From the IMG/VR virus record IMGVR_UViG_3300031857_000027: a DNA stretch of 64,000 nucleotides. One strand, 5' to 3'. Position numbers and translations under genes: made by a program. The first letter of the stretch is position 1. Each line of letters begins with the position of its first letter. The notes under the pieces were generated by a model. The model was not told the origin of the DNA. It did not search any database and saw only the letters and a program-made list of their open reading frames with translations. The stretch is from a virus. Below are positions 75-60,049 of the stretch, piece by piece.

Positions 75-130
75 TGGTGGACTAGGTGGGAGTCGAACCC
101 ACGTCCAGAATGCCTTCACTTTGAAGGGAT
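75..130 (-). ncRNA. ssrA: tmRNA acceptor piece (3' tRNA-like domain), probably a permuted two-piece gene continuing beyond the window start
   Basis: Minus strand reads ...TCTGGAC-GTGGG-TTCGACT-CCCAC-CTAGTCC-A-CCA: GAC linker, T-arm, acceptor 3' strand with U70 and encoded CCA. There is no anticodon arm and no adjacent upstream 5' half. A hairpin-closed intervening segment follows. Confidence 0.7.
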
Positions 131-1302
131 TACAACAATTCTTTCAAACGTTCTTCTATTCCAAGATTTTTAATATTTTGCACATAACTTAGAACTGGCC
201 AAGACCCTATGCTTCTTTCAAATGAAACTGTATGTGGTTTTTTTAAAGTTTTTTCATCCAAAGCTACTTTTATAATTTCAGAAAATTTAGTTTTATTTTT
301 AAAATTTTCTTTTATAATATTTTCACCTAATTTTTGAGCATATTTCCAAAACTCGTTATTATATACTGAGCCTGAAAAATAATGCAAGCATATCATTGCT
401 TCAGTTTCGGTTATTTCTCTTTTATAGAATTCATTTACTGCATTTTGATTAAATTCTTTCGTATACCAATAATCAAAAGAAAGTCTATTAATATAATCTG
501 AAAATCCCGTAGATGTAGCCTCAAGTGGTTCAAGAAAATAAGAAGCGTTACCATTGTAACAAACTCTAACATCAAAATTTTGTTTTCTGGAATAATTTCT
601 AAATTTTAGTTTTCTAGTCGCCGTTGGCACCAAATTAAATTCATCAAGTATGTCCTGAACTTCCGTTATGATATCCTCTTCAGTACAATATTGATCATTA
701 TAAACATAACCTATGGCGCATCTATTTTTTAATGGTATTCCAAAAACCCAACCAAATTTTTTGGCGAATGTTAATGAATAAAAAAATTTCGGCATATCCC
801 AAGGACACTGAAATACCATAGCGGCATTTACTGGTATGTGATCATGAACAGTATAATCTTCCATCAAATCTTTAGGTGATCCAGTACACATCATAACATA
901 ATCACTATCAACAGAATCAGGAGTTGGTATATTTGATTCTATCAAATTAACTCTTGGATCATTCCTCATTTTTTCAAAGATATAATCTTGTAACTGAACT
1001 GCATTGAAATGTAGTCCATGGTCACCAGCAAGAAATGTGTGTTTAAAATCTTCGCCTTGACCCCAGTTTCTTTTCCAAATACCCAGTTTTGGAGTAGAGT
1101 TCACATTATCCATGTCAACGCTACTAAATCCTAACGTTTCTCTGAGAGATTTCGGAAATATTAAATTCGTTCCTTCTCCTACCGGAGTAGTTTCAATAAG
1201 AGGATCATAAATCCAATCTATATTCCAATTGGTATATCTAAGATAATGTGCTACTGATAAGCAACCAACCGTGCCTCTACCAACTATCGCTATTTTTTTC
1301 AT
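130..1302 (-). CDS. Flavin-dependent tryptophan-halogenase-like protein
   Basis: N-terminal GRGTVG FAD motif, VGEGT, GWVFGIPL and FLEPLEATSTG motifs. Confidence 0.8.
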   Translation of the reverse strand: MKKIAIVGRGTVGCLSVAHYLRYTNWNIDWIYDPLIETTPVGEGTNLIFPKSLRETLGFSSVDMDNVNSTPKLGIWKRNWGQGEDFKHTFLAGDHGLHFNAVQLQDYIFEKMRNDPRVNLIESNIPTPDSVDSDYVMMCTGSPKDLMEDYTVHDHIPVNAAMVFQCPWDMPKFFYSLTFAKKFGWVFGIPLKNRCAIGYVYNDQYCTEEDIITEVQDILDEFNLVPTATRKLKFRNYSRKQNFDVRVCYNGNASYFLEPLEATSTGFSDYINRLSFDYWYTKEFNQNAVNEFYKREITETEAMICLHYFSGSVYNNEFWKYAQKLGENIIKENFKNKTKFSEIIKVALDEKTLKKPHTVSFERSIGSWPVLSYVQNIKNLGIEERLKELL

Positions 1303-15101: not shown

Positions 15102-15896
15102 ATGGATCCGTTTACACTTTTTGCTCTGGCAAATGGTGCAGTCCAAGCGGTAAAAAAAGGTTGTGAGTTATACAAAGAAATTGCTGGTGTTGCTGGTGAT
15201 GTAAAAGGTGTTCTATCGGATTTAGAGTCGCAATTCAATTCTCGTCATAAAGACAAGCCGCCCACTATTGCTGAAAAAAATCAGTACATAGAAGAAAAAA
15301 ACCGCATACTTGAATTAAGTAAGAAACAACCCAACGATATCTATACCCAGATAGGGGAAGAGTTGGGCGTTTACTTTGAAAACTACGCCAAGTGTTCTGC
15401 TATCTTTGAAGAAGAAGAAAAGCATTCTCAAGAAGTGTATACGGGAGAAACAAGTTTAGGTAAAAGAGCATTACAACGTGTTCTGATGCAAAGTCGTTTA
15501 ACTGCGATGGAAGCAGAACTTCGTGAACTTATGGTTTACAACTGTCCTCCAGAATTAGGTGATCTGTATACCCGTGTGTATGCAATGATGGAGAAAATGA
15601 AGAAAGAGCAGTCAATTGCATGGACAAAAAAAAGACAAGCCGATAGAATTGCTGCAACCAAAAAAGCAAAGAGACTTCAAAAAATAAGATGTGAGGCTTG
15701 GAAATATGGCATTGCAACAGTTTTCATTCTTTATTTGTTTTTATTAGTATGGTCAGTATTACAAATACGTATCATGGAAAAACCCGAACTTGGTAGTTGT
15801 CTTCTACCAAAAGGTCAATGGCCATACCAATACTATAGCAATTTAAAATGGGTTGACTGTGAAATTCCTGGCTATGAAGGCAATGCTAAAAATTGA
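15102..15896 (+). CDS. Hypothetical coiled-coil protein with C-terminal TM segment
   Basis: 264-aa plus-strand ORF, MDPFTLFALA start. Confidence 0.7.
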   Translation: MDPFTLFALANGAVQAVKKGCELYKEIAGVAGDVKGVLSDLESQFNSRHKDKPPTIAEKNQYIEEKNRILELSKKQPNDIYTQIGEELGVYFENYAKCSAIFEEEEKHSQEVYTGETSLGKRALQRVLMQSRLTAMEAELRELMVYNCPPELGDLYTRVYAMMEKMKKEQSIAWTKKRQADRIAATKKAKRLQKIRCEAWKYGIATVFILYLFLLVWSVLQIRIMEKPELGSCLLPKGQWPYQYYSNLKWVDCEIPGYEGNAKN

Positions 15897-16071
15897 GTTT
15901 TTAGACAATGAACTTTTTTACTATGTTTTCACAAACGTAGGTAATAATTTAATTCTTGTCACACGTGATGGTATGTTAGCCACTCAAGTGAATGCTGCAT
16001 TGAAAAATAAAAGAAATGATGCCGATTACAGATTGGCGCTGATGAACAAAAAAGGAAAAGCGGCTTGGTAG
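15883..16071 (+). CDS. Hypothetical protein
   Basis: Coupled to the previous ORF; ends in the terminator. Confidence 0.4.
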   Translation: MLKIEFLDNELFYYVFTNVGNNLILVTRDGMLATQVNAALKNKRNDADYRLALMNKKGKAAW

Positions 16072-16082
16072 CCGCTTTTTTT
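16056..16082. terminator. Bidirectional rho-independent terminator
   Basis: AAAAGCGGCT-TGGT-AGCCGCTTTTTT between convergent genes. Confidence 0.85.
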
Positions 16083-16087
16083 ACTGA

Positions 16088-16162
16088 TTAACGATTTGCG
16101 ATGTACATTGTGATTTCGAAACCAAAACGCATATCATTTGCTGTAGGTGTAGTCCATGCCAT
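16088..16162 (-). CDS. pqqA: Pyrroloquinoline quinone precursor peptide
   Basis: MAWTTPTANDMRFGFEITMYIANR (24 aa) with the ExxxY motif; AGGAG RBS; followed by a terminator. Confidence 0.92.
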   Translation of the reverse strand: MAWTTPTANDMRFGFEITMYIANR

Positions 16163-16176
16163 GTTACTTCTCCTTA

Positions 16177-16605
16177 TTATTCTGAAAGATGTTTTTCTAA
16201 TGCTTTTGCATAACGATTGGCATGTGAACGTTCTGCTTTCGCAAGTGTTTCAAACCAATCGGCTACTTCATCAAAGCCTTCTTCACGTGCAGTCTTTGCC
16301 ATACCTGGATACATGTCAGAGTATTCGTGCGTTTCGCCAGCGATAGCGGCCTCTAACATTTGTCGTGCATTTTTTGCTGGCATGTTTGTGCCAGGTTCTC
16401 CTGCACCACCTTCAATGAGATATTCCATATGACCATGTGCGTGTCCAGTTTCACCTTCTGCTGTAGAACGGAACAATGATGCTAAATCGTTCTCACCTGC
16501 AATATCACACTGATTTGCGAAATAAAGATAACGGCGGTTTGCCATTGATTCACCTGCAAAAGCCTCTTTCAAGCACTCAGCAGTTTTTGTGCCTTTCAAA
16601 CTCAT
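16177..16605 (-). CDS. Rubrerythrin (short, ferritin-like)
   Basis: [40 protein letters not shown]. Confidence 0.92.
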
Positions 16606-16646: not shown

Positions 16647-16841
16647 TCACTTCTCTGGAGACTCAGTATTTTCTTGATTCTTATCTAATTTTTTCAGCGA
16701 CCACGAACCATTGCCGTTATCAATCCACTTCAGTGTGTCTCCTTCTGCCCAACCAACTTCGGCTAGCACTTCATCAGGAAATTCAATAAAGTAATCACCA
16801 TCTTCGTGTTGTTTTACTTCTAAGGTCCAAGATTTGTTCAT
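16647..16841 (-). CDS. AbrB/MazE/SpoVT-like small protein
   Basis: FIEFPDEVL..VGW.EGDTLKW. Confidence 0.65.
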   Translation of the reverse strand: MNKSWTLEVKQHEDGDYFIEFPDEVLAEVGWAEGDTLKWIDNGNGSWSLKKLDKNQENTESPEK

Positions 16842-16852
16842 AATATAAAATT

Positions 16853-16926
16853 TGGAGCGGGATGTCAGAATCGAACTGACAACGTAAGATTGGAAATCTC
16901 AAGTTTTACCATTAAACTAATCCCGC
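16853..16926 (-). tRNA. tRNA-Gly(TCC)
   Basis: Cloverleaf with encoded CCA. Confidence 0.9.
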
Positions 16927-16931
16927 ATAAA

Positions 16932-17228
16932 CTATTTGATGAGAATCTCTTTTCGTTCCACATCTTCACCATTTGGGTGATGATATGCGACATACCCATC
17001 TTTATCTTTGTATGTTACGCCTGCCCAATAATAATCTTTGTGTTTGAAGTAAGCGATACGTTCATCGGTGTATTCATTTACGTCAATTTTCAGATTACCG
17101 AGCCATTCTTGCCAATTGTCATCAGCATATTCAGAAATTTTGACGGCTTCTTCTTCGTTATCCGCCTCAATCACATAAACATTACGAAAAGCAGATAATT
17201 GCTCAACGATATACTTAGGCATCTTCAC
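16932..17228 (-). CDS. Hypothetical protein
   Basis: Coupled ORF. Confidence 0.6.
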   Translation of the reverse strand: MKMPKYIVEQLSAFRNVYVIEADNEEEAVKISEYADDNWQEWLGNLKIDVNEYTDERIAYFKHKDYYWAGVTYKDKDGYVAYHHPNGEDVERKEILIK

Positions 17229-17508
17229 TCTCCAATGAAAAATTCACTTGCTTGATTGAATCCCAACGAAAACTGCGCCAGCCTTCTTTTTCTAAATCAT
17301 AAACAGCAAGTGCTTCATCATTTTTTGTTTTTTCTGAACCTGCTGTTTCAGGAAGATAGTCTTCCATCAATGTGCATTTCATTGTACGTTCAGTTCCGTC
17401 TTTTTTCGTAAAAACGATTTCAACAGATCGTTCTTCAAGCAAACCAATCAGCCACTTGCGACCACGTTTTGCATCTTTACTGTTACCAGAAAAAACATTT
17501 GTATTCAT
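17215..17508 (-). CDS. SH3/WYL-like (DUF2693-type) protein
   Basis: FTKKDGTERTMKCTL...WRSFR. Confidence 0.75.
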   Translation of the reverse strand: MNTNVFSGNSKDAKRGRKWLIGLLEERSVEIVFTKKDGTERTMKCTLMEDYLPETAGSEKTKNDEALAVYDLEKEGWRSFRWDSIKQVNFSLESEDA

Positions 17509-17511
17509 AAT

Positions 17512-17946
17512 TTACTCCGTTAAAGATTTGAGTGCTTCGTTCACTTTTTGCTTAAATTTACCGTTTGTTATAAAATCAAGATACTCAACCCACCAATTTT
17601 CTGATGTTTCTGTCTTTTTAACAATGCAACCTGATATTCCTGAGCCAACAAGGTTTTTTATGTACACAATTGGGTCAGAAAGTATCGCTTCAAACGCATC
17701 ATCAAACTGTGGCATACCTTCTTCGTCTTCTTTAAAGAATGCCATATGATATTTGTAGCCCATTTCTGACTTTTCAATGGGTTTTGCCATTGTCCACTCT
17801 TCTTTGAAGTTGAAAAATGCTAATTTGTAGTTTTCATCGTAGTCATCATAGTCAGGAACAAAGTAAAAACCGTCAAACTTGACCATTTCGTCGCCAGAAA
17901 TTGTTCCGGACTCAATTTGTTGCACTTTTTCATCAGAAGATGGCAT
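17512..17946 (-). CDS. Hypothetical acidic protein
   Basis: ORF track; probable start MPSS. Confidence 0.55.
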   Translation of the reverse strand: MPSSDEKVQQIESGTISGDEMVKFDGFYFVPDYDDYDENYKLAFFNFKEEWTMAKPIEKSEMGYKYHMAFFKEDEEGMPQFDDAFEAILSDPIVYIKNLVGSGISGCIVKKTETSENWWVEYLDFITNGKFKQKVNEALKSLTE

Positions 17947-18091
17947 AAATTTTCCTAAAGTTTTGTTTTTCAACTGCTCGGTTATGAATTTTTGTCGCCG
18001 AATGCTCAACTTTCATGCGAAACTTCGGCGTGAACAAGTCTTTAGCAACAAAATTTCGTGGTTTTTGCAACTTTTGTGATTTTTTACTCAT
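17933..18091 (-). CDS. Small basic conserved phage protein
   Basis: PRNFVAKDLFTPKFRMKV; directly after a sigma70 promoter. Confidence 0.6.
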   Translation of the reverse strand: MSKKSQKLQKPRNFVAKDLFTPKFRMKVEHSATKIHNRAVEKQNFRKIYAIF

Positions 18092-18098
18092 AGGAAAC

Positions 18099-18127
18099 AG
18101 TATACTACAGAAAAATTTGCTTGTCAA
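18099..18127 (-). promoter_or_regulatory. Sigma70 promoter
   Basis: TTGACA-17-TATACT. Confidence 0.8.
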
Positions 18128-18128
18128 G

Positions 18129-18215
18129 TGGCGGAAGATAGAGGAATCGAACCTCTGCACCGTTTTCACAGTGACGGATTAGCAATCCGCTGCATTACCT
18201 CTCTGCCAATCTTCC
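18129..18215 (-). tRNA. tRNA-Ser(GCT)
   Basis: Type II cloverleaf, CCA. Confidence 0.9.
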
Positions 18216-18320
18216 TAAAATTACTGCCAACCCATAAAAAAGTGCCATAATTGCCGCCACGCTGATACCCATCAACACCCAATACATTAAAATTGTCAGT
18301 ATGATTTGTGTTATCAACAT
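18195..18320 (-). CDS. 41-aa hydrophobic peptide between the two tRNA-Ser genes
   Basis: AGGAGAT-ATG; MLITQIILTILMYWVLMGISVAAIMALFYGLAVILGRLAER. Confidence 0.5.
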   Translation of the reverse strand: MLITQIILTILMYWVLMGISVAAIMALFYGLAVILGRLAER

Positions 18321-18328
18321 ATCTCCTT

Positions 18329-25797: not shown

Positions 25798-26061
25798 TCA
25801 TAGTACAAAGTATTTCAATAATGCAACTCCGACAACAATACTTACCACATAAGGGAGTAGTGTCATCATAGCACGTATTAGCATAAAGACAATGGTCACC
25901 AGCACCGCCAGCACCAGCATTTCACCACCATAGTTCGGGAGAGAAGGTACCTCAGCGGGAAGCGGTGGCAGCGGTTGTGTGATAATTGCTTCACCAATTA
26001 CCGCTTCACCCGCATCCAGTGTTTCCTCAATGGTGGGCAGTTCAAGGGTTAGTGGCATCAC
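25798..26061 (-). CDS. Membrane hypothetical protein
   Basis: Two hydrophobic segments. Confidence 0.5.
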   Translation of the reverse strand: MMPLTLELPTIEETLDAGEAVIGEAIITQPLPPLPAEVPSLPNYGGEMLVLAVLVTIVFMLIRAMMTLLPYVVSIVVGVALLKYFVL

Positions 26062-26264
26062 TCATCCTCATCAAGGTCTTCGTCAAGGTCTTCGTCAAGG
26101 TCTTCGTCTTCATCATCCAGAAAGAATTCATTGGCATGTGCCATGTCCTTCACATCATCTTCGGACATATACTTGAGGCACGCCATAATCACGGTGTCAC
26201 GATCCAGCAGACCATCCTCAACGAGTTCTAAAATGCGTTCAGTGGCTTGTCGGGTTTTGTACAT
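26058..26264 (-). CDS. Small protein with acidic DEDL-repeat tail
   Basis: GGAGG RBS; 12-bp tandem repeat TCAAGGTCTTCG x3 at about 26071-26106. Confidence 0.65.
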   Translation of the reverse strand: MYKTRQATERILELVEDGLLDRDTVIMACLKYMSEDDVKDMAHANEFFLDDEDEDLDEDLDEDLDEDE

Positions 26265-26542
26265 AATATACCTCCAAAAAAAATTTTAGTGCGACTCAGT
26301 GGCAGGTCGGCGATTTCACTGTCAATAAGGTTGCTTTGAAATAGCATGTTCCTTTAAGGAATCCCTTTTTTCTATACCATTCATCACTTTCACCCTATAC
26401 ACCACAATATACTGCCTTGTAGTGTCATGCACCCTCAGGGCGCCCATACATCTCCAGCACATTAGCCACAGTGATAGCAGCAAGCCCTAGCCTGTCGGCA
26501 ATGGCCATCACACCAAGGCCGGCGTCATTCAACTCCAGCACC

Positions 26543-26752
26543 TCAATTACTAAGTTCTTGTAATAGCCCATTGATATCCTCATCCTCATCATGTACATTA
26601 ATCACTGGCGGCTTACGCACATTGGGGTTTTCACCGTACAGTGTCACATCACCATTTTTTCCACCTGCCACCACAGTACGTGCGGCCATGTAGGTGCTGA
26701 ATTCGTCGGCTGCCGCCACTGCCTCAGCATCACTGAATTGTGCCTTTTTCAT
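26543..26752 (-). CDS. Small early hypothetical protein
   Basis: MKKAQFSDAEA... Confidence 0.5.
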   Translation of the reverse strand: MKKAQFSDAEAVAAADEFSTYMAARTVVAGGKNGDVTLYGENPNVRKPPVINVHDEDEDINGLLQELSN

Positions 26753-26925
26753 TATGCAAAGGCCTTTCCAGGGTACCCAGCAGCAAAGCCACCGCTGCCC
26801 TTCACAAAGCCTTTACTGGCCTTTGCACGGCATACTGGCTTTTTGGCCTTACGTGGTTTGCACAGTGTAGCACCCATGCCCTTAGTGGCTTCGGCTACAT
26901 CGGCCTCAGTGAATTGTGCTTTCAT
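26752..26925 (-). CDS. Small basic early protein (57 aa)
   Basis: MKAQFTEADV...GKAFA, GGAG RBS; translated by eye. Confidence 0.5.
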   Translation of the reverse strand: MKAQFTEADVAEATKGMGATLCKPRKAKKPVCRAKASKGFVKGSGGFAAGYPGKAFA

Positions 26926-27250
26926 TACAGTCTCCAGGTTTTGATGGCCTCTGCTACATCACCCACGGCAATGTTCAGCAGGGCAGCAATACGCCACACA
27001 GGGTAGCCAAGGTATCGCAGTGTTGCAATCTCATTAATGGTATCACGGCGGATAATCATAGTGTCATTCCTTTTGCAAGATAAGCAATATAGCCAGGTTC
27101 TTTGTTCAACACCACCACAGGCTCAATACCTAACACCACACCAGTCCGAACAAACTCTTTTTTGGCAAAAGCCACAGCGGCTCTCAGTGTCTTGAATTTT
27201 CTCTCACCACAGGCATACATCACAATCTCCTTTTCAATCACCACACAGGC

Positions 27251-27279
27251 ATTATAGCACCGTGCAGGAAGTCTGTCAA
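27251..27279 (-). promoter_or_regulatory. Early sigma70 promoter
   Basis: TTGACA-17-TATAAT. Confidence 0.85.
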
Positions 27280-27294
27280 CCAGTTATTCGGCAA

Positions 27295-27555
27295 TTATGG
27301 TGCGTAATAATCAACTTGCAGTGCCACGCCGTTCCAGCATCCCGCTAGACCCACGGCAGCCACTCCAGCAGCACCAGGATCACGCCTGGCAGCACCTAGA
27401 GCCTTCAATGCTTTTTCCACTGCCAGCCCATTTATACCCACAAAACCGCTTAACGCTTGCTTTACGGTCATACCCACCCGCAGGTCAAAATCACAAAATC
27501 GGATCATTACCTCATCGGTATTTTTCAGGCCAGGAACTAATGTTTTCGTTCTCAT
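27295..27555 (-). CDS. Early hypothetical protein
   Basis: ORF track. Confidence 0.55.
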   Translation of the reverse strand: MRTKTLVPGLKNTDEVMIRFCDFDLRVGMTVKQALSGFVGINGLAVEKALKALGAARRDPGAAGVAAVGLAGCWNGVALQVDYYAP

Positions 27556-27770
27556 TACAGTTCACCCCTATCAATCATTGCATCAATAACAATATACACA
27601 CCACCCACCAGAGCGGCTATACAGAACACAATTTCAATCGTTTCCATTTTATTAACCCAGAGTAGTAACAGCACCAGGTGCAGCAGCCAGAACACCCCAC
27701 ACAGCAATCACAGCACACAGTATCAAAATCGCAATCATCTCAATCTCCAAAATCATCTCATCACGGTTAG

Positions 27771-27799
27771 ATTATGGCGGAATGGGCGGGCTTTGTCAA
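27771..27799 (-). promoter_or_regulatory. Early sigma70 promoter
   Basis: TTGACA-17-CATAAT. Confidence 0.75.
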
Positions 27800-28019
27800 C
27801 CACTTTGTGGCAGTTCAAATTTGAACTCGGCTTATAGTGTTGCAAGTTCAGCAAGGCATATCTCACAACCACAGGCTTCGGCCAGGCGGGCATCACGGAT
27901 AGCCTCTTTCAGTTCTGTTATTTCTTTTCTGACAACCAGTGCCAGGTCTTGCTTATCCTGCAATTGTTGCTTGAGTAGTTGCAATTTTGTCATCGTGGTT
28001 CTCCGTCACTGAAAACGGC

Positions 28020-28048
28020 ATTATAGCAGCCAGGGTGGGCATTGTCAA
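28020..28048 (-). promoter_or_regulatory. Early sigma70 promoter
   Basis: TTGACA-17-TATAAT. Confidence 0.85.
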
Positions 28049-28373
28049 GCGCCTGGTGCTACTAGGTGTAGTGCGGTGCAGTGCGAATATCGCAACATTT
28101 AGTAGGCCGCTGCCACACGCTCCTCCAGCACGCCATAAATAGTGCGTTTGCGGATGCAATATAATGCATCCTCACCACATGCAATATAATGCGGTTCAGT
28201 ACACCTCACGCTCATATACATCAAACTCATTGATAACACCATCTACCACTAGTCCTTCACCATAATACAGTGCGGAATCATAGTCGGCAAATACACGTAG
28301 GATCGTTCTAGGTCCCATACCCTCAGACATATCAATTACAATAAAAACTTTGTTTGATTCAAATTTCATTATA

Positions 28374-32938: not shown

Positions 32939-33013
32939 TGGTCCGGCTGCCAGGAATCGAACCTGGATCACAAGATTAGAAGTCATGTGTATTATCCATT
33001 ATACTACAGCCAG
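32939..33013 (-). tRNA. tRNA-Arg(TCT)
   Basis: Cloverleaf, CCA. Confidence 0.85.
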
Positions 33014-33015
33014 AG

Positions 33016-33091
33016 TGGTGGGCTGTGCAGGACTTGAACCTGCACTCAACGAATTATGAGTTCGCTGCTTTGACCATTAAGCTAACAGCCC
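33016..33091 (-). tRNA. tRNA with CAT anticodon, probably Ile2 (lysidine)
   Basis: GGGCTGT acceptor, CT-CAT-AA loop, A73. Confidence 0.8.
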
Positions 33092-33095
33092 GAAA

Positions 33096-33180
33096 TGGTG
33101 CGACTAGCCAGAATCGAACTGGCAAACCTTTCGGCGGCAGATTTTAAGTCTGCTGTGTTTACCTATTTCACCATAGTCGC
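33096..33180 (-). tRNA. tRNA-Leu(TAA)
   Basis: Type II cloverleaf, CCA. Confidence 0.9.
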
Positions 33181-40519: not shown

Positions 40520-41542
40520 TTATTTCCAAATTGGGTTGTTGTCTGGACCACGGAAGTCTTTCTTCCAGTTTTCCTGTACGAGTTTAATTACATCGGCTGG
40601 CATGTGAACATATTCCAACTCTGTTGACATTTGACCGCCGTTCTTATATGCCCAGTCAAAGAATTTAAGAACTGCACGACCTGTTAATGCGTCTGCTTGT
40701 TGCTTGTGCATGAGAATGAAACTTGCGCCTGTTGCTGGCCAAGCATCTTTACCTGTTTGCCATGTGAGTAACAAATACATTCCTGGTGCATTAGCCCAAT
40801 CTGCATTGGCTGCGGCTGCTTTAAATGTTGTATCATCCGGTAATACAAAGTTACCATCACGATTCTTTACTGATGCAAATGCAATCTTGTTTCTCTTTGC
40901 AAATGCATACTCAACATAACCAAATGCACCTTTGATACGTTGTACTTGTGCTGCTACACCTTCGTTACCTTTACCACCCACACCAACTGGCCACTTCACT
41001 GCTGTACCTTCACCTACTGCCTTTTGAAAGTCTGCATTTGATTTGCTTAGAAAATTAGTCCAAATAAATGTAGTACCTGAACCATCTGCACGATGAATAA
41101 CTGTAATATTCATAGCAGGTAAATTTACACCAGGATTTAAATCAGCAATTGCTTTATCATTCCATTTGGTAATTTTACCAAGATGAATATTTGCAATTAC
41201 ATCTGGTGTCAACTTTAGTTTACCTGCATCAATGCCATCAAGATTATAAACTGGTACAACACCACCAATGATTGCTGGAAATTGTACAAGACCTTCTTTG
41301 TCTAGTTCTTCTTTCTTGAGTGGCATATCACTTGCACCAAAGTCAACCGTCTTGGCTTTGATTTGACGGATACCACCGCCTGAACCGATTGATTGATAGT
41401 TTAGACCAATGCCTGTGGCAGCCTTGTATGCTTCTGCCCACTTAGCATAGATTGGAAATGGAAAAGTCGCACCGGCTCCAGTTAATTCTGCTGCGGATGC
41501 GACTCCTGTAAATAACAATAATGATACTAAAAAATTCTTCAT
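40520..41542 (-). CDS. pstS: Phosphate ABC transporter substrate-binding protein
   Basis: GAGATFP, YQSIGSGGG, DFGASD, RADGSGTT, GKGNEGV. Confidence 0.95.
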   Translation of the reverse strand: MKNFLVSLLLFTGVASAAELTGAGATFPFPIYAKWAEAYKAATGIGLNYQSIGSGGGIRQIKAKTVDFGASDMPLKKEELDKEGLVQFPAIIGGVVPVYNLDGIDAGKLKLTPDVIANIHLGKITKWNDKAIADLNPGVNLPAMNITVIHRADGSGTTFIWTNFLSKSNADFQKAVGEGTAVKWPVGVGGKGNEGVAAQVQRIKGAFGYVEYAFAKRNKIAFASVKNRDGNFVLPDDTTFKAAAANADWANAPGMYLLLTWQTGKDAWPATGASFILMHKQQADALTGRAVLKFFDWAYKNGGQMSTELEYVHMPADVIKLVQENWKKDFRGPDNNPIWK

Positions 41543-52748: not shown

Positions 52749-54368
52749 TTATGTTTTCTGTATATCGCTAGACAATTCGGGGTCTTTTTGAAACTTATCC
52801 GATGCCTGTTCTTGTTCTTGTTTTTTGCCCTTTGCGGCATCTCTAACAATCTGAGCCTTGCGTGATAGAGTTCTTGCTGCTGCGCTTGGATCGTCAGTGT
52901 TTTCACTCACAGACTTCCAACCACCACCCATTTCTTTGTATTTCTTCGCAGCCCAACCGTTAGCATATGCTGAAGGATATACATCAAACTTAGATTTTGC
53001 TTGTGCTTTAGCCTGCGCCCACTTCTCAGGTGATGTAGGCACATTCTTTTCTTCAAGATATTCAACATCTTCACCCATTGCTCTTTTTTGACTCTGTGTG
53101 TATTTTCTTTGTTTAACTGGTGACATAGATGCCATTGAAGCCTTTTTTCTGTCTCTTTCTACTGCACTATGATAACCACTTCTCAATCTAACTGCCTGAC
53201 CCAGATGTTCATCACCCGCTTCATCATGTCCTTTTGATCTGGCGTCTTTTCCTTTTTTTGTGGCTATTTTTGCAGCACGATCCAAAAGTGCAGGCGAAAG
53301 TTCATCAAGTTGTTCAGTCTCTTCTTTGACATGACCATACTTCTTTTTGTACCAGTCGGGCATACCACTCTTTTGACGGAAGTATCTTACTGTTGCAGAA
53401 TCGTTTGCTTGATCACGATATTTGTTTTCTGCTGTTGTATTATGGCTCTTCATTGCTTCTGCTGCTTTATGGGCATCTTTGGCAATATATTCCAATTCAG
53501 CATTCGTCTTCTTATGATACTCATGACCTTCTAGTGGATGGCGCTGTGATGGGCGACCTTCAGTGAGTTCAACTTCTTCTTTGTTGTATTTCTTTTTTAA
53601 ATACTTATCAACCTTGCGTTCGTATTCACCTTTTGGTTTCTTAGGAACAGGAGTGCCGTGTGGTGAAGGAACATATCGTTTAACTTCTTCATTCAGTTCA
53701 CCACGCAGATAGTTGGCTGCTGTAGAGATATAATCTTCAGCAAGTGTAATCTTTGATTGAACCCATTCTGGCAGATTTGTGTTTTCTTCCATCAAGTCCA
53801 TCATGTCTTGTGCATTGAACATCAGTGAACGAATTTGTGACATCGCCATATCACCTTCATAATCATACTCACGTGCATCTTTTGCTTCTTTAATTGGTGT
53901 AACAATCGTAGAAGACTTATATGGTTTTTTAACTGGTCCAGACACAAATCGTCCTTTCTTTTCTAATTGTTCATCAATCTCTGTTTCTTCAGAAACTCTT
54001 GATGCTTTCATGATACCACGAATCAGTGGTGCTTTGAGTTGCTTGTGTCTTGGAACAGCAATGTGTTCTTTTGACTTTGGATGCCCATATACATCATGGC
54101 CACCACCTGTGCGTTTCAATGTCCAACCTGATTTGCGAAGATGAGCATGAACATCACGTGTCTTCATGCTTGACTCTGGCATCTCATCAAGTTGTTCAAC
54201 TTCTTCCACTTTATATTTCTTTTTGATTTCAGATTGCTTCGCAAGTCTTTCTTTATCGTCAGAAATACCGTAAGAATGACCCAACTCTTTGTAATAGTCG
54301 GGATGTGGTAGTCCCGACTTCTTACGCAGAGCCATTTGTCGTTGATGTAATTTATCTGCGACTGACAT
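52749..54368 (-). CDS. Internal head polyprotein-like protein with a HicA-like RNase domain
   Basis: Repeated EE.EQLDE linkers; GW...GGHDVY.HP...IAVPRH. Confidence 0.7.
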   Translation of the reverse strand: MSVADKLHQRQMALRKKSGLPHPDYYKELGHSYGISDDKERLAKQSEIKKKYKVEEVEQLDEMPESSMKTRDVHAHLRKSGWTLKRTGGGHDVYGHPKSKEHIAVPRHKQLKAPLIRGIMKASRVSEETEIDEQLEKKGRFVSGPVKKPYKSSTIVTPIKEAKDAREYDYEGDMAMSQIRSLMFNAQDMMDLMEENTNLPEWVQSKITLAEDYISTAANYLRGELNEEVKRYVPSPHGTPVPKKPKGEYERKVDKYLKKKYNKEEVELTEGRPSQRHPLEGHEYHKKTNAELEYIAKDAHKAAEAMKSHNTTAENKYRDQANDSATVRYFRQKSGMPDWYKKKYGHVKEETEQLDELSPALLDRAAKIATKKGKDARSKGHDEAGDEHLGQAVRLRSGYHSAVERDRKKASMASMSPVKQRKYTQSQKRAMGEDVEYLEEKNVPTSPEKWAQAKAQAKSKFDVYPSAYANGWAAKKYKEMGGGWKSVSENTDDPSAAARTLSRKAQIVRDAAKGKKQEQEQASDKFQKDPELSSDIQKT

Positions 54369-56855: not shown

Positions 56856-57350
56856 TTAGCAGTTCCACTTTCTCAATGCTTTATTAATACGTGAATCTGG
56901 ATCACGTGCTGTCTTTGCTGATGTTAGTCTACGCTTCATCCCACCCATTCTGGCGCAAAATGACTTACGACGATTTGCTGCCTTAGAACCTGCTTTTAGT
57001 TTACTTGGTTTCGTTGTCACAGCAGTTTGTAATTTTGAACCAGGATTTTCACGACGATATGACTCAACACCTTTTTGATTCAAACCACCTTCTGGATTTT
57101 TACCTTCTTTACGCTGCCATGCTGCAACTTCTTCTAATTGTTCTTCTGTAAGTGGACCATCATCGGCTTCATAATCTTCTTTTTTTAACTTCATCATCTT
57201 CGGCTTTGTGAATACAGGATTATCTGCACCACCAGCACCACCTTCTCTCTCTTCTCTTACGCATGAGCCTTTTGCATATGCTTTTTTACCCGGCGCTGGT
57301 TTATATCCAGGCCAACATCTTTCATCCATCAGTTGTTTGAATGATTTCAT
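56856..57350 (-). CDS. Conserved internal virion protein
   Basis: MKSFKQ..E, CWPGY, AAWQRKEGKN..GGLN, RRKSFCARM. Confidence 0.7.
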   Translation of the reverse strand: MKSFKQLMDERCWPGYKPAPGKKAYAKGSCVREEREGGAGGADNPVFTKPKMMKLKKEDYEADDGPLTEEQLEEVAAWQRKEGKNPEGGLNQKGVESYRRENPGSKLQTAVTTKPSKLKAGSKAANRRKSFCARMGGMKRRLTSAKTARDPDSRINKALRKWNC

Positions 57351-60049
57351 ACGTAGTTTCTCTTTTTAAATGTTATAAGTGAGATACCTTTTTTCTTCAA
57401 TTCATCTTCTTTTTGATCACCAATTGATGCTGTCGTTTCATCACCAGTAAGTTCACTAATATTCTTAGGCACAACTTGTGTTGCTTTACCCTTTTTACTC
57501 AACTTCTCACCCATGTCTCTAGCAGGAGATTCACCAGCACCTGCCATTGAAATACCAGGTTCAATGCCTCTGTCAATCTCAGAAATTATTTCTCTTTCTT
57601 CGGCTTTCTTCTGGAAGTTTTCTTTGATGGTGGCAAGGCTGATGGTTCTTCTTCCTTCGGCAACGGGTTTGTCAAGGGCTGGTCGTTCTTTTCTTCCAGT
57701 ACCGGTTCTAACCTTACCGAGTTGTTGGGCTGACGGGGTGGAACTATTCTGTCCATAAAGTGCTTCAATCGCAGAATGATCAGGTGAATGTATTTCATGC
57801 AAGTCCTCTTTTAATTTAACAACGTATCTGTTACCAACTTTTGCTACTGTGCCATTTTTTTGGTGTGCTTCTTTTGCTGCTGAACCACGAATGTAAAACA
57901 ATCTTGTCTTACCGTTCTTGTCTGTCAATAACTTCTGTTTCTTTTGCGTTTCTTCAAACTGTTTACCAATTAACTTTGTGCCAGAAACATGTTGAATCAT
58001 TTTCCATGCTTCTTTGTGATTCTTGTTCGCAAGATGTTCTTTGAATTTTTTCTTCTGTTCTGGTGTAGCCTTCTGATGAAACTTCATGACTTCCATCATG
58101 CCAATGTTACCTTCATATGCCGCTTCACTGATCTTACCTTTGCCATAGTTTGAAACATTGATTGGCTCACCCTTGCGTTCTGGATTAGGATCATGGCGGC
58201 GTTTTGAAGCCACGGCAGCAGCACGTTCTTTCTTAGATAGTGATGCTCTCTTTTCGTTTGACATACATTTTGGTTTTGCTTCACCTGGTTCTCTGGCGCA
58301 AGGACCAATTGCTTCACCTTTGCTATTGATGCGCTTCCAGCCACCTTCTGGATCAGTTTTACTAAACCACTTACGTAAATCTTCTTTAATCATACCTCTA
58401 CCTAATGTCAGTAGATTGTAAGCACCAGCATCAGACATTGTGTTTACTTCTTCTTCCTCTGTCATCTCTTCTTCATCTGACTTGAGCAAACGAAGTGTGC
58501 GTGTGACTTCTTCTACTGTATCACCTGTAACTGATACTGTGACTGCTTCATTCATCTTGGCCATTTTGTTTTGATGTGTCTCAACAGTCTTTGCAATTTT
58601 CTCTACCGGCACTAAACTACCATGCACTGAACGATGTGTAACTTTGCCGTCTTTACCATAACGGCCAAAGCCATAATACTCTAGACCCATCTTGGACATA
58701 TCTTCATGTGTGCCAGCATCGGCATGTGGTTTCATATCAGTACGAATCGGTGCAGTATCTTTCTTACCCAACTCTGTAGCAATCCAACCTTTTGCCAAAT
58801 CATTCTTCGGTGGCTTGCCGACGAACTTTTGCATGTTTTTAAAAATGCCATCAAGTTCTTTTGTCTTTGCTTCTACAACTTCCGGTGCTGCTGTACGCAA
58901 ATCTTCTGAATTATCAAACTCAACATAGTTGTCACGAAATAGTTTACCAAACATTGGTCGTGCTGCTTGTACAGATTCCCATTTCTCTTTACGAATGTCT
59001 TCTGGCACTGTACGACCACCACGTTGACCACGTTCAATGTTTCTTTCTTTTGATACTTCGTCTGCTGTATTGACCATGACCATGGATGTTTCATAGCCTA
59101 ACTTCTCAAGCATCTCTTTGATCTTGGCATACTTTTCTGGATCATCACCAGTACCATTGATGATCAATCCATTACGACCATGAAGTGCTAAACGTTGACG
59201 CAATTCTGTAACGTTCTTTGCTCTTTTACGAACAGCATTACGTTGTGATTCTTCATTCTCTGGCATCTTCTTATCAAGGTTTTCTTTGTCCATCAGATAC
59301 TCAAGTGCTTTATCAGAATTGATTTCTGTTAGACCATGACCATCTAGTGTCTTGCTTAACACATAGTCTTTGCCTGAACCAGGACCACCACCTAGAAATA
59401 CTGCTTTGAAAATACCTTTGTCGTGTACACCCTCACGAATGATTTCTTCGTGAAGTCTCATACCTTTACGTACATCATTGAACATTTGCTTGACATGAGC
59501 ATGAGACATTGATGATGGTGCGCCTTTCTTGAATGAATCAAGATCGCCACTCTTTGCGTGTTCACGCATTTTAGAAGCAGAAATGCCAGTTACACCTTCA
59601 GCATCAGGATCACGTTCACCTGCTGAGTGTACTTTGATTTCTTTGAAGTTGAAACGGGCACCTTCATGTGTGCCATTGTACTTGTGTAGCAGTCTGTGAT
59701 ATTCTTCTGTGCGGTCAGAACCACCAACCATGTGAAGATGTGTTACACCCTTCTTGTGTAATGCTTCGGCATGGTCAAAGAATGTTGGTTTTTCTTTAGA
59801 TGCTGCTGTGAAATTCGTGCCAGAAAATGCTCTCTTGGCATGTTTGACTTTTTGATCTGCTGTAAGGGGATTCTTCTTGGCGTCCTGTGAATGTGACAGA
59901 ACGATATGATGTGAGCCGCCAACTTTATCGGCGATCTCTTTGACTTTATTGACTAGTTTTTCGTGACCGTTTGTAATCGGATTCATGCGACCAAATGCTA
60001 GGACGGCATGTTTCTCTTTCTGTTCACGTAGAAAATCTCTAAATTTCAT
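57347..60049 (-). CDS. Multidomain protein: cytidyltransferase-like plus zeta-toxin-like P-loop kinase plus further modules
   Basis: FGRMNPITNGH, GSDR, SAGERD..SASKMR; FLGGGPGSGK, INSD, RN.ER..R.VP. Confidence 0.75.
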   Translation of the reverse strand: MKFRDFLREQKEKHAVLAFGRMNPITNGHEKLVNKVKEIADKVGGSHHIVLSHSQDAKKNPLTADQKVKHAKRAFSGTNFTAASKEKPTFFDHAEALHKKGVTHLHMVGGSDRTEEYHRLLHKYNGTHEGARFNFKEIKVHSAGERDPDAEGVTGISASKMREHAKSGDLDSFKKGAPSSMSHAHVKQMFNDVRKGMRLHEEIIREGVHDKGIFKAVFLGGGPGSGKDYVLSKTLDGHGLTEINSDKALEYLMDKENLDKKMPENEESQRNAVRKRAKNVTELRQRLALHGRNGLIINGTGDDPEKYAKIKEMLEKLGYETSMVMVNTADEVSKERNIERGQRGGRTVPEDIRKEKWESVQAARPMFGKLFRDNYVEFDNSEDLRTAAPEVVEAKTKELDGIFKNMQKFVGKPPKNDLAKGWIATELGKKDTAPIRTDMKPHADAGTHEDMSKMGLEYYGFGRYGKDGKVTHRSVHGSLVPVEKIAKTVETHQNKMAKMNEAVTVSVTGDTVEEVTRTLRLLKSDEEEMTEEEEVNTMSDAGAYNLLTLGRGMIKEDLRKWFSKTDPEGGWKRINSKGEAIGPCAREPGEAKPKCMSNEKRASLSKKERAAAVASKRRHDPNPERKGEPINVSNYGKGKISEAAYEGNIGMMEVMKFHQKATPEQKKKFKEHLANKNHKEAWKMIQHVSGTKLIGKQFEETQKKQKLLTDKNGKTRLFYIRGSAAKEAHQKNGTVAKVGNRYVVKLKEDLHEIHSPDHSAIEALYGQNSSTPSAQQLGKVRTGTGRKERPALDKPVAEGRRTISLATIKENFQKKAEEREIISEIDRGIEPGISMAGAGESPARDMGEKLSKKGKATQVVPKNISELTGDETTASIGDQKEDELKKKGISLITFKKRNYV

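Follow-up and report, generated by a model that had tools for sequence, protein, structure and literature searches.

Phage-borne pqqA has been described before. Coutinho et al. (2020) reported viral PqqA in Lake Baikal methylotroph phages (population VP_266) with support of PQQ dehydrogenases as the rationale (PMC7678222), and a 2026 study counted viral pqqA, pqqD and pqqE as auxiliary metabolic genes (AMGs). The gene is also common in viral contigs, and the novelty accorded to it with an earlier note on the DNA analysed here was overstated. As in VP_266 (PMC7678222), the contig comes from an uncultured freshwater phage and carries a PQQ precursor gene as an orphan, which we read as an AMG. 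In contrast, the predicted host of VP_266 belongs to the Methylophilaceae and its contig also encodes a methanol dehydrogenase, whereas our peptide is of the Burkholderiales type (...EITMYIANR), its cassette lies behind a rubrerythrin gene and no methanol dehydrogenase was found in the record. Methylophilales phages (Melnitz, Venkman, MEP301, MEP401/402 and P19250A) likewise carry an ORF of 23-24 codons with its own ribosome-binding site (RBS) and without pqqB-E nearby, the product being 64-68% identical to ours. These copies differ in their Methylophilaceae-type tail (...EVTMYVMNK), in their neighbours and in their hosts, which are marine OM43 or lake LD28; in the paper on Melnitz, pqqA goes without mention. 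Stand-alone bacterial pqqA genes, such as those of five small freshwater genomes (G001-G005) and of a methylotroph with five pqqA copies (PMC9851590), are similarly unlinked from pqqBCDE and still act as precursor there. In case of the methylotroph, a stand-alone copy ranked among those with the highest expression when PQQ was overproduced (PMC9851590). Such bacterial copies are chromosomal and have their own transcription signals, whereas the phage copy appears to borrow the transcript and terminator of rubrerythrin. With respect to the latter gene, the T4-like aquatic myophage Mosig of Pelagibacter also encodes a rubredoxin-less rubrerythrin (62% identical), but gave no pqqA match in our search of GenBank phages.

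The window, meaning the whole stretch of 64,000 nucleotides that was analysed, belongs to a 133,235-bp IMG/VR virus record with an estimated completeness of about 75%. Its pqqA gene (16088-16162, minus strand) comprises 24 codons and encodes the peptide MAWTTPTANDMRFGFEITMYIANR, a length within the roughly 20-40 residues expected of a PqqA with its E-x-x-x-Y pair. Here, the motif reads E16-I-T-M-Y20, with E16 and Y20 as the crosslinked residues. The earlier note had named the peptide PqqA from its letters and had suggested a search with the PqqA profile. Both curated cut-offs were passed in that search, with 38.9 bits against PF08042 (cut-off 21.1, E 8e-10) and 39.2 bits against the NCBIfam equivalog TIGR02107 (cut-off 20, E 4e-10). 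Since the ORF is also the only PqqA match in the entire 133-kb record (E 9.6e-10), a chance resemblance is excluded. An alignment of phage and bacterial copies showed W3, P6, R12, G14, E16, T18 and Y20 to be invariant, and the leader positions W, P, R and G of copies from pqqABCDE operons are all present in the window peptide. At the level of sequence, the ORF is thus confirmed as a genuine, intact PqqA-family gene. A Shine-Dalgarno motif, AAGGAG (16170-16175, minus strand), is located 7 nt 5' of the pqqA ATG, and an intrinsic-terminator-like hairpin (16056-16079, minus strand; stem GCGGCT/AGCCGC) begins 8 nt 3' of the stop codon. The hairpin has 10 pairs, 5 of them G-C, a loop of 4 and a T-rich tail. 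T-runs flank it on both strands, and it is common to pqqA and a convergent plus-strand ORF (15853-16071). These coordinates and the hairpin bear out the previously claimed arrangement of a 24-aa ORF with an AGGAG RBS after rubrerythrin and before a terminator.

The rubrerythrin gene (16177-16605, minus strand) lies upstream and ends 14 nt before the pqqA start. Its 142-aa product matches PF02915 with 88.9 bits, and the translation contains all seven diiron ligands (E19, E52/H55, E91/E94 and E125/H128, in the order E, ExxH, ExxE, ExxH). Against the NCBIfam rubrerythrin equivalog NF045767 the protein reaches 116.9 bits, below the cut-off of 200, because the C-terminal rubredoxin domain of classical rubrerythrin is missing, as comparison with the model showed (positions 3-143 of 194 covered). 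The closest cellular homologues are similarly short at 145 aa. Upstream of rubrerythrin follows a 64-aa ORF (16647-16841, minus strand) with a weak AbrB/MazE-like match under the cut-off (E 0.022); homologues of this ORF were detected by tblastn in 5 of 80 viral pqqA loci (L014, L019, L020, L047 and L053). Beyond it, tRNA-Gly(tcc) (16853-16926, minus strand) is the last tRNA in a minus-strand string of tRNA and small genes that ends in rubrerythrin and pqqA. The 26 tRNA genes of the window are found at 16853-21053 and 32939-33180, with 23 of them forming one run of about 4 kb on the minus strand that leads into rubrerythrin-pqqA. No convincing sigma-70-type promoter was found directly upstream of rubrerythrin, and promoter-like sites are just as numerous in shuffled sequence. 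The motif TTTAAATA, located 29-36 nt 5' of the rubrerythrin ATG, is similar to T4 late promoters as judged by eye only.

Comparison of near-identical phages revealed that pqqA is carried on a cassette of about 90 nt (approximate boundaries 16083-16176, minus strand). In the window and in L175, L177, L186 and L195, the cassette sits between the rubrerythrin stop codon and the hairpin and contains nothing but the RBS and pqqA. It is absent from L178, L180 and L182, where this hairpin, GCGGCTACCAAGCCGC, comes directly after the rubrerythrin stop codon. Contigs of two sequencing runs (X18 and X19) also link 16083 to 16189 or 16211 and thus represent the form without pqqA. Because the rubrerythrins of L178, L180 and L182 are 96-97% identical to that of the window, the cassette is evidently dispensable. 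Further, a cassette of this length is too short to include a promoter, so that its transcription would have to come from rubrerythrin and stop at the terminator of that gene. This anatomy, a promoterless insert between the rubrerythrin stop codon and a pre-existing terminator, strongly implies that rubrerythrin and pqqA are co-transcribed; it is the best evidence in favour of this earlier proposal.

Contigs from two lake metatranscriptomes cover the phage rubrerythrin at 16192-16509 (1 difference) and 16304-16543 (2 differences), and a metatranscriptome contig over 15950-16100 (1 difference) includes the terminator and the final 13 nt of pqqA. No metatranscriptome contig extends across the junction of rubrerythrin and pqqA, and carried-over DNA is a possible source. 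Contigs from RNA runs carry no information on level, strand or a bridging transcript, and no meaning attaches to the parts of the stretch left uncovered. Other contigs of the same runs match the pqqA ORF alone, with 7 differences and foreign flanks, and represent pqqA of other organisms. The metatranscriptomes therefore point only weakly to pqqA expression.

The carrier is a large T4-like lake phage. Its record contains, besides the tRNA genes, a T4-type RNase H, ribonucleotide reductase, PstS and virion proteins, and one structural protein is 57% identical to its counterpart in S-RIM8-type T4-like cyanomyoviruses. Near-identical DNA was present in sequencing runs of 15 studies, chiefly freshwater or lake metagenomes. 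A megablast search of 8 kb around pqqA against GenBank phages returned only tRNA-sized matches, and the phage is therefore without a close cultured relative in that set. The absence of other pqq genes from the window, as first noted from the ORF list, agrees with profile, tblastn and tblastx searches of the complete 133-kb record. In these, the PqqC, PqqD and PQQ alcohol dehydrogenase families were not found in the roughly 75% of the genome available, and the pqqBCDE sets of Acinetobacter and Albidiferax yielded zero tblastn and tblastx matches. Adjacency to pqqBCDE, which the record does not show, is not obligatory for the PqqA family, as pqqA is unlinked from pqqC in G001-G005. The only radical SAM protein of the record was considered as a PqqE candidate and rejected, since it has a B12-binding domain and adjoins a split TPP enzyme.

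Several other genes of the record were observed in passing. The B12-binding radical SAM protein (506 aa) and the subsequent split TPP-dependent enzyme with E1/transketolase-like halves lie outside the window (record positions ca. 25516-28155; L009 832-3471), and a 900-aa cytidylyltransferase fusion is encoded at window positions 57347-60049. Together, these look like a small-molecule or sugar/phosphonate-type modification pathway. A tryptophan-halogenase-like protein (phrog_2928) is encoded at window positions 130-1302 (minus strand), and a 539-aa protein (window 52749-54368, minus strand) matches a 'toxin' PHROG, phrog_353, over a short segment (residues 66-124).

Using tblastn against GenBank phages, as the earlier note had suggested, we recovered pqqA ORFs from Melnitz (four isolates), from the other Methylophilales phages named above and from a spring-water podovirus. 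An orphan pqqA was present in every Methylophilales phage returned by this search. All of these ORFs start with ATG and have a ribosome-binding site, and all are unannotated or lie under a wrong-strand ORF. In the Melnitz records, for example that of Melnitz-1 (MZ577095.1, 74848-74953; L002 3967-4072), the annotation leaves out pqqA and places a 'hypothetical protein' over it on the other strand, while the records of Venkman, MEP301, MEP401/402 and P19250A have no annotation over the ORF. Matches named 'Acinetobacter phage MD-2021a' (e.g. L008, CAKLQF020000010.1) were rejected as phage evidence and used as a positive control only, as they are bacterial contigs with pqqABCDE. With fur, ppk and a full pqqABCDE operon, these records are apparently pieces of bacterial chromosome deposited under a phage name.

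In IMG/VR, at least 590 stretches contain a PqqA relative, and the following details refer to the best 80. All 80 copies are intact with an ATG start and together represent 48 distinct peptides. An AGGAG-like site occurs at the equivalent place in nearly all of them, and a 3' hairpin in many. Within 6 kb, pqqB, C, D and E are each absent from all 80 loci, whereas identical queries detect pqqB-E at most of the 80 best bacterial pqqA loci. The third codon position varies most, and a pN/pS of about 0.22 suggests purifying selection on viral pqqA, a signal somewhat inflated by the selection of the set by peptide similarity. The gene spans unrelated phage types, from myovirus-size to ca. 40-kb genomes, and frequent neighbours in other viral pqqA loci are the T4 core genes regA, gp44/62 clamp loader and gp33 as well as Hsp20.

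To the host, the peptide itself gives a first indication. Its top bacterial matches are identical at 21 of 24 positions and all come from Burkholderiales or close kin, and residues 12-24 (RFGFEITMYIANR, 13 aa) are identical to those of Burkholderiales PqqA, in many cases encoded directly upstream of pqqBCDE. The genomes G001-G005 (2.2-3.0 Mb) are recorded as Oxalobacteraceae, Burkholderiaceae or Pseudomonadota. PqqA of G001-G003 (MAWTTPAATDL..., 21/24 identical) shares the MAWTTP start of the window peptide; G004 and G005 have MNWTTP. All five genomes contain both pqqA and pqqC, G001-G004 each encode 3-4 PQQ alcohol dehydrogenases that score above the cut-off of that family, and the rubrerythrins of the five are 76% identical to the phage copy. 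The phosphate-binding protein PstS (window 40520-41542, minus strand; 76% identical to that of G004) is a useful host marker and shows 73-76% identity to G003 and G004, the two tested, versus 55-58% to Albidiferax and a genus named Polynucleobacter.

The nearest named cellular rubrerythrins, 81-83% identical, are proteins named as those of Polynucleobacter, which would suggest this genus as host. Against it, no pqqC was found in any of the 61 sampled genomes of the genus to which these proteins belong (Polynucleobacter by NCBI protein name), which thus seems unable to make PQQ, and PstS is more similar to G003 and G004; we therefore rejected it. Rubrerythrin alone does not resolve the host: of 401 Burkholderiales genomes searched, 228 contain 70-76% matches. 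None of our claims draws on those of the searched genomes that are flagged as unpublished. Because similarity in PqqA, PstS and rubrerythrin coincides with the presence of PQQ genes in G001-G005, while the genus with the nearest rubrerythrins appears to be without pqqC, the most likely host, as far as gene similarity can indicate, is a PQQ-competent member of the Burkholderiales near these genomes. This fits the PQQ-using betaproteobacterial host proposed earlier. With the nearest named rubrerythrins in a genus whose sampled genomes gave no pqqC, the cargo genes do not all indicate one donor, and the rubrerythrin of the phage may have come from another. A contig binned as 'uncultured Bifidobacterium' (L107, CAYUDI010000075.1) carries a Burkholderiales-type orphan pqqA (MNWTTPAATDL...) and is probably mis-binned.

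In PQQ synthesis, one PqqA is consumed per PQQ. PqqD presents PqqA to the radical SAM enzyme PqqE, PqqE makes the Glu-Tyr link, and PqqB and PqqC complete the cofactor. We consider it probable that the orphan pqqA is a host-derived auxiliary gene with which a lytic-type T4-like freshwater phage supplies precursor to PqqBCDE of a PQQ-using Burkholderiales host. As the phage copy retains all invariant positions and the host core, substrate supply is the most economical reading. What the data show is the identity, anatomy and conservation of the gene, the gain and loss of the cassette and the PQQ competence of the likely host lineage; expression, processing and benefit are inferred as follows. 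Most likely, the rubrerythrin message would include pqqA as its final cistron, and translation of pqqA would use the gene's own AAGGAG. Host PqqD and PqqE would then take the phage peptide and crosslink E16 to Y20, after which host PqqB and PqqC would trim the crosslinked peptide and mature it into PQQ. Added precursor during infection, while host transcription fails, could keep periplasmic PQQ dehydrogenases of the XoxF, MxaF or ExaA type loaded, and loaded dehydrogenases may in turn keep up the energy supply for phage production.

Alternatively, rubrerythrin, a peroxide reductase, and pqqA could form one functional module against oxidative stress, with PQQ acting as an antioxidant or with rubrerythrin removing the H2O2 of PqqC and shielding the oxygen-sensitive PqqE. 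Rubrerythrin does occur within 6 kb at 14 of 80 viral pqqA loci and at 0 of 80 bacterial ones. Conversely, of the 80 viral loci whose rubrerythrins are closest, 23 have a pqqA no more than 6 kb away, in every case on the strand of rubrerythrin and downstream of it, and in 9 of these it follows immediately, 13-29 nt after the stop codon. Moreover, two classes of rubrerythrin, 72-84% and 35-41% identical to that of the window, both occur near pqqA. However, many of the counted loci are related, so that the counts do not represent independent events, and rubrerythrin is missing from most viral pqqA loci just as pqqA is missing from 57 of the 80 rubrerythrin loci. Gene order and distance also vary within the flexible cargo region of T4-like genomes, and rubrerythrin is kept without pqqA in near-identical phages and, by the GenBank search, in Mosig. 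The association is thus a recurrent but loose co-residence, and a joint role in oxidative stress appears unlikely; the antioxidant idea that had been tied to rubrerythrin was overstated, loose co-location being its only support. The stricter proposal, that both genes are a selected two-gene unit on one transcript which pairs PQQ precursor with a peroxide-scavenging diiron protein that guards PqqE or clears H2O2 from PqqC, we likewise regard as improbable. If true, it would make high-flux PQQ synthesis possible in an infected aerobic cell.

The gain and loss of pqqA among near-identical phages marks the gene as non-essential and would also suit a neutral hitch-hiker, that is, a functionless piece of host DNA acquired by chance, or a copy of an attachment site. 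We see little likelihood in this, given that the cassette is trimmed to exactly RBS and ORF, that the best 80 viral copies are all intact with the low pN/pS given above, and that pqqA is found in unrelated phage types. No integrase was seen among the ORFs scanned, most of the record being unannotated. The specific idea of an attP site or gene fragment was rejected, because the whole ORF is carried with its RBS instead of a 3' fragment and synonymous sites have diverged. Very improbable, finally, is a decoy that ties up host PqqD and PqqE unproductively or floods the pathway and thereby lowers PQQ for host takeover. Nothing supports it directly; an orphan precursor that comes without enzymes might in theory rival that of the host, and its variable N-terminal leader departs at 3 positions from the nearest host copies. 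However, the phage peptide agrees with working host PqqA in its core and at every invariant position of the family, and bacteria keep unlinked extra pqqA copies that feed PQQ synthesis (PMC9851590).

In conclusion, we characterized a Burkholderiales-type pqqA outside the phages of Methylophilaceae, carried on a promoterless cassette with natural presence and absence variants and with a recurrent but loose link to rubrerythrin, which are the new elements of this study. As the general idea has already been published, the gain is incremental. Gene callers miss genes this short, and the equivalents in cultured phages are unannotated or have a wrong-strand ORF called over them. To the pqqA-bearing phages of Methylophilaceae methylotrophs, the present locus adds a T4-like phage that most likely infects a different lineage of freshwater Burkholderiales. 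Near-identical phages with and without the pqqA cassette of about 90 nt constitute a natural pair, and their comparison, or their ratios in lakes, could show whether precursor supply pays.
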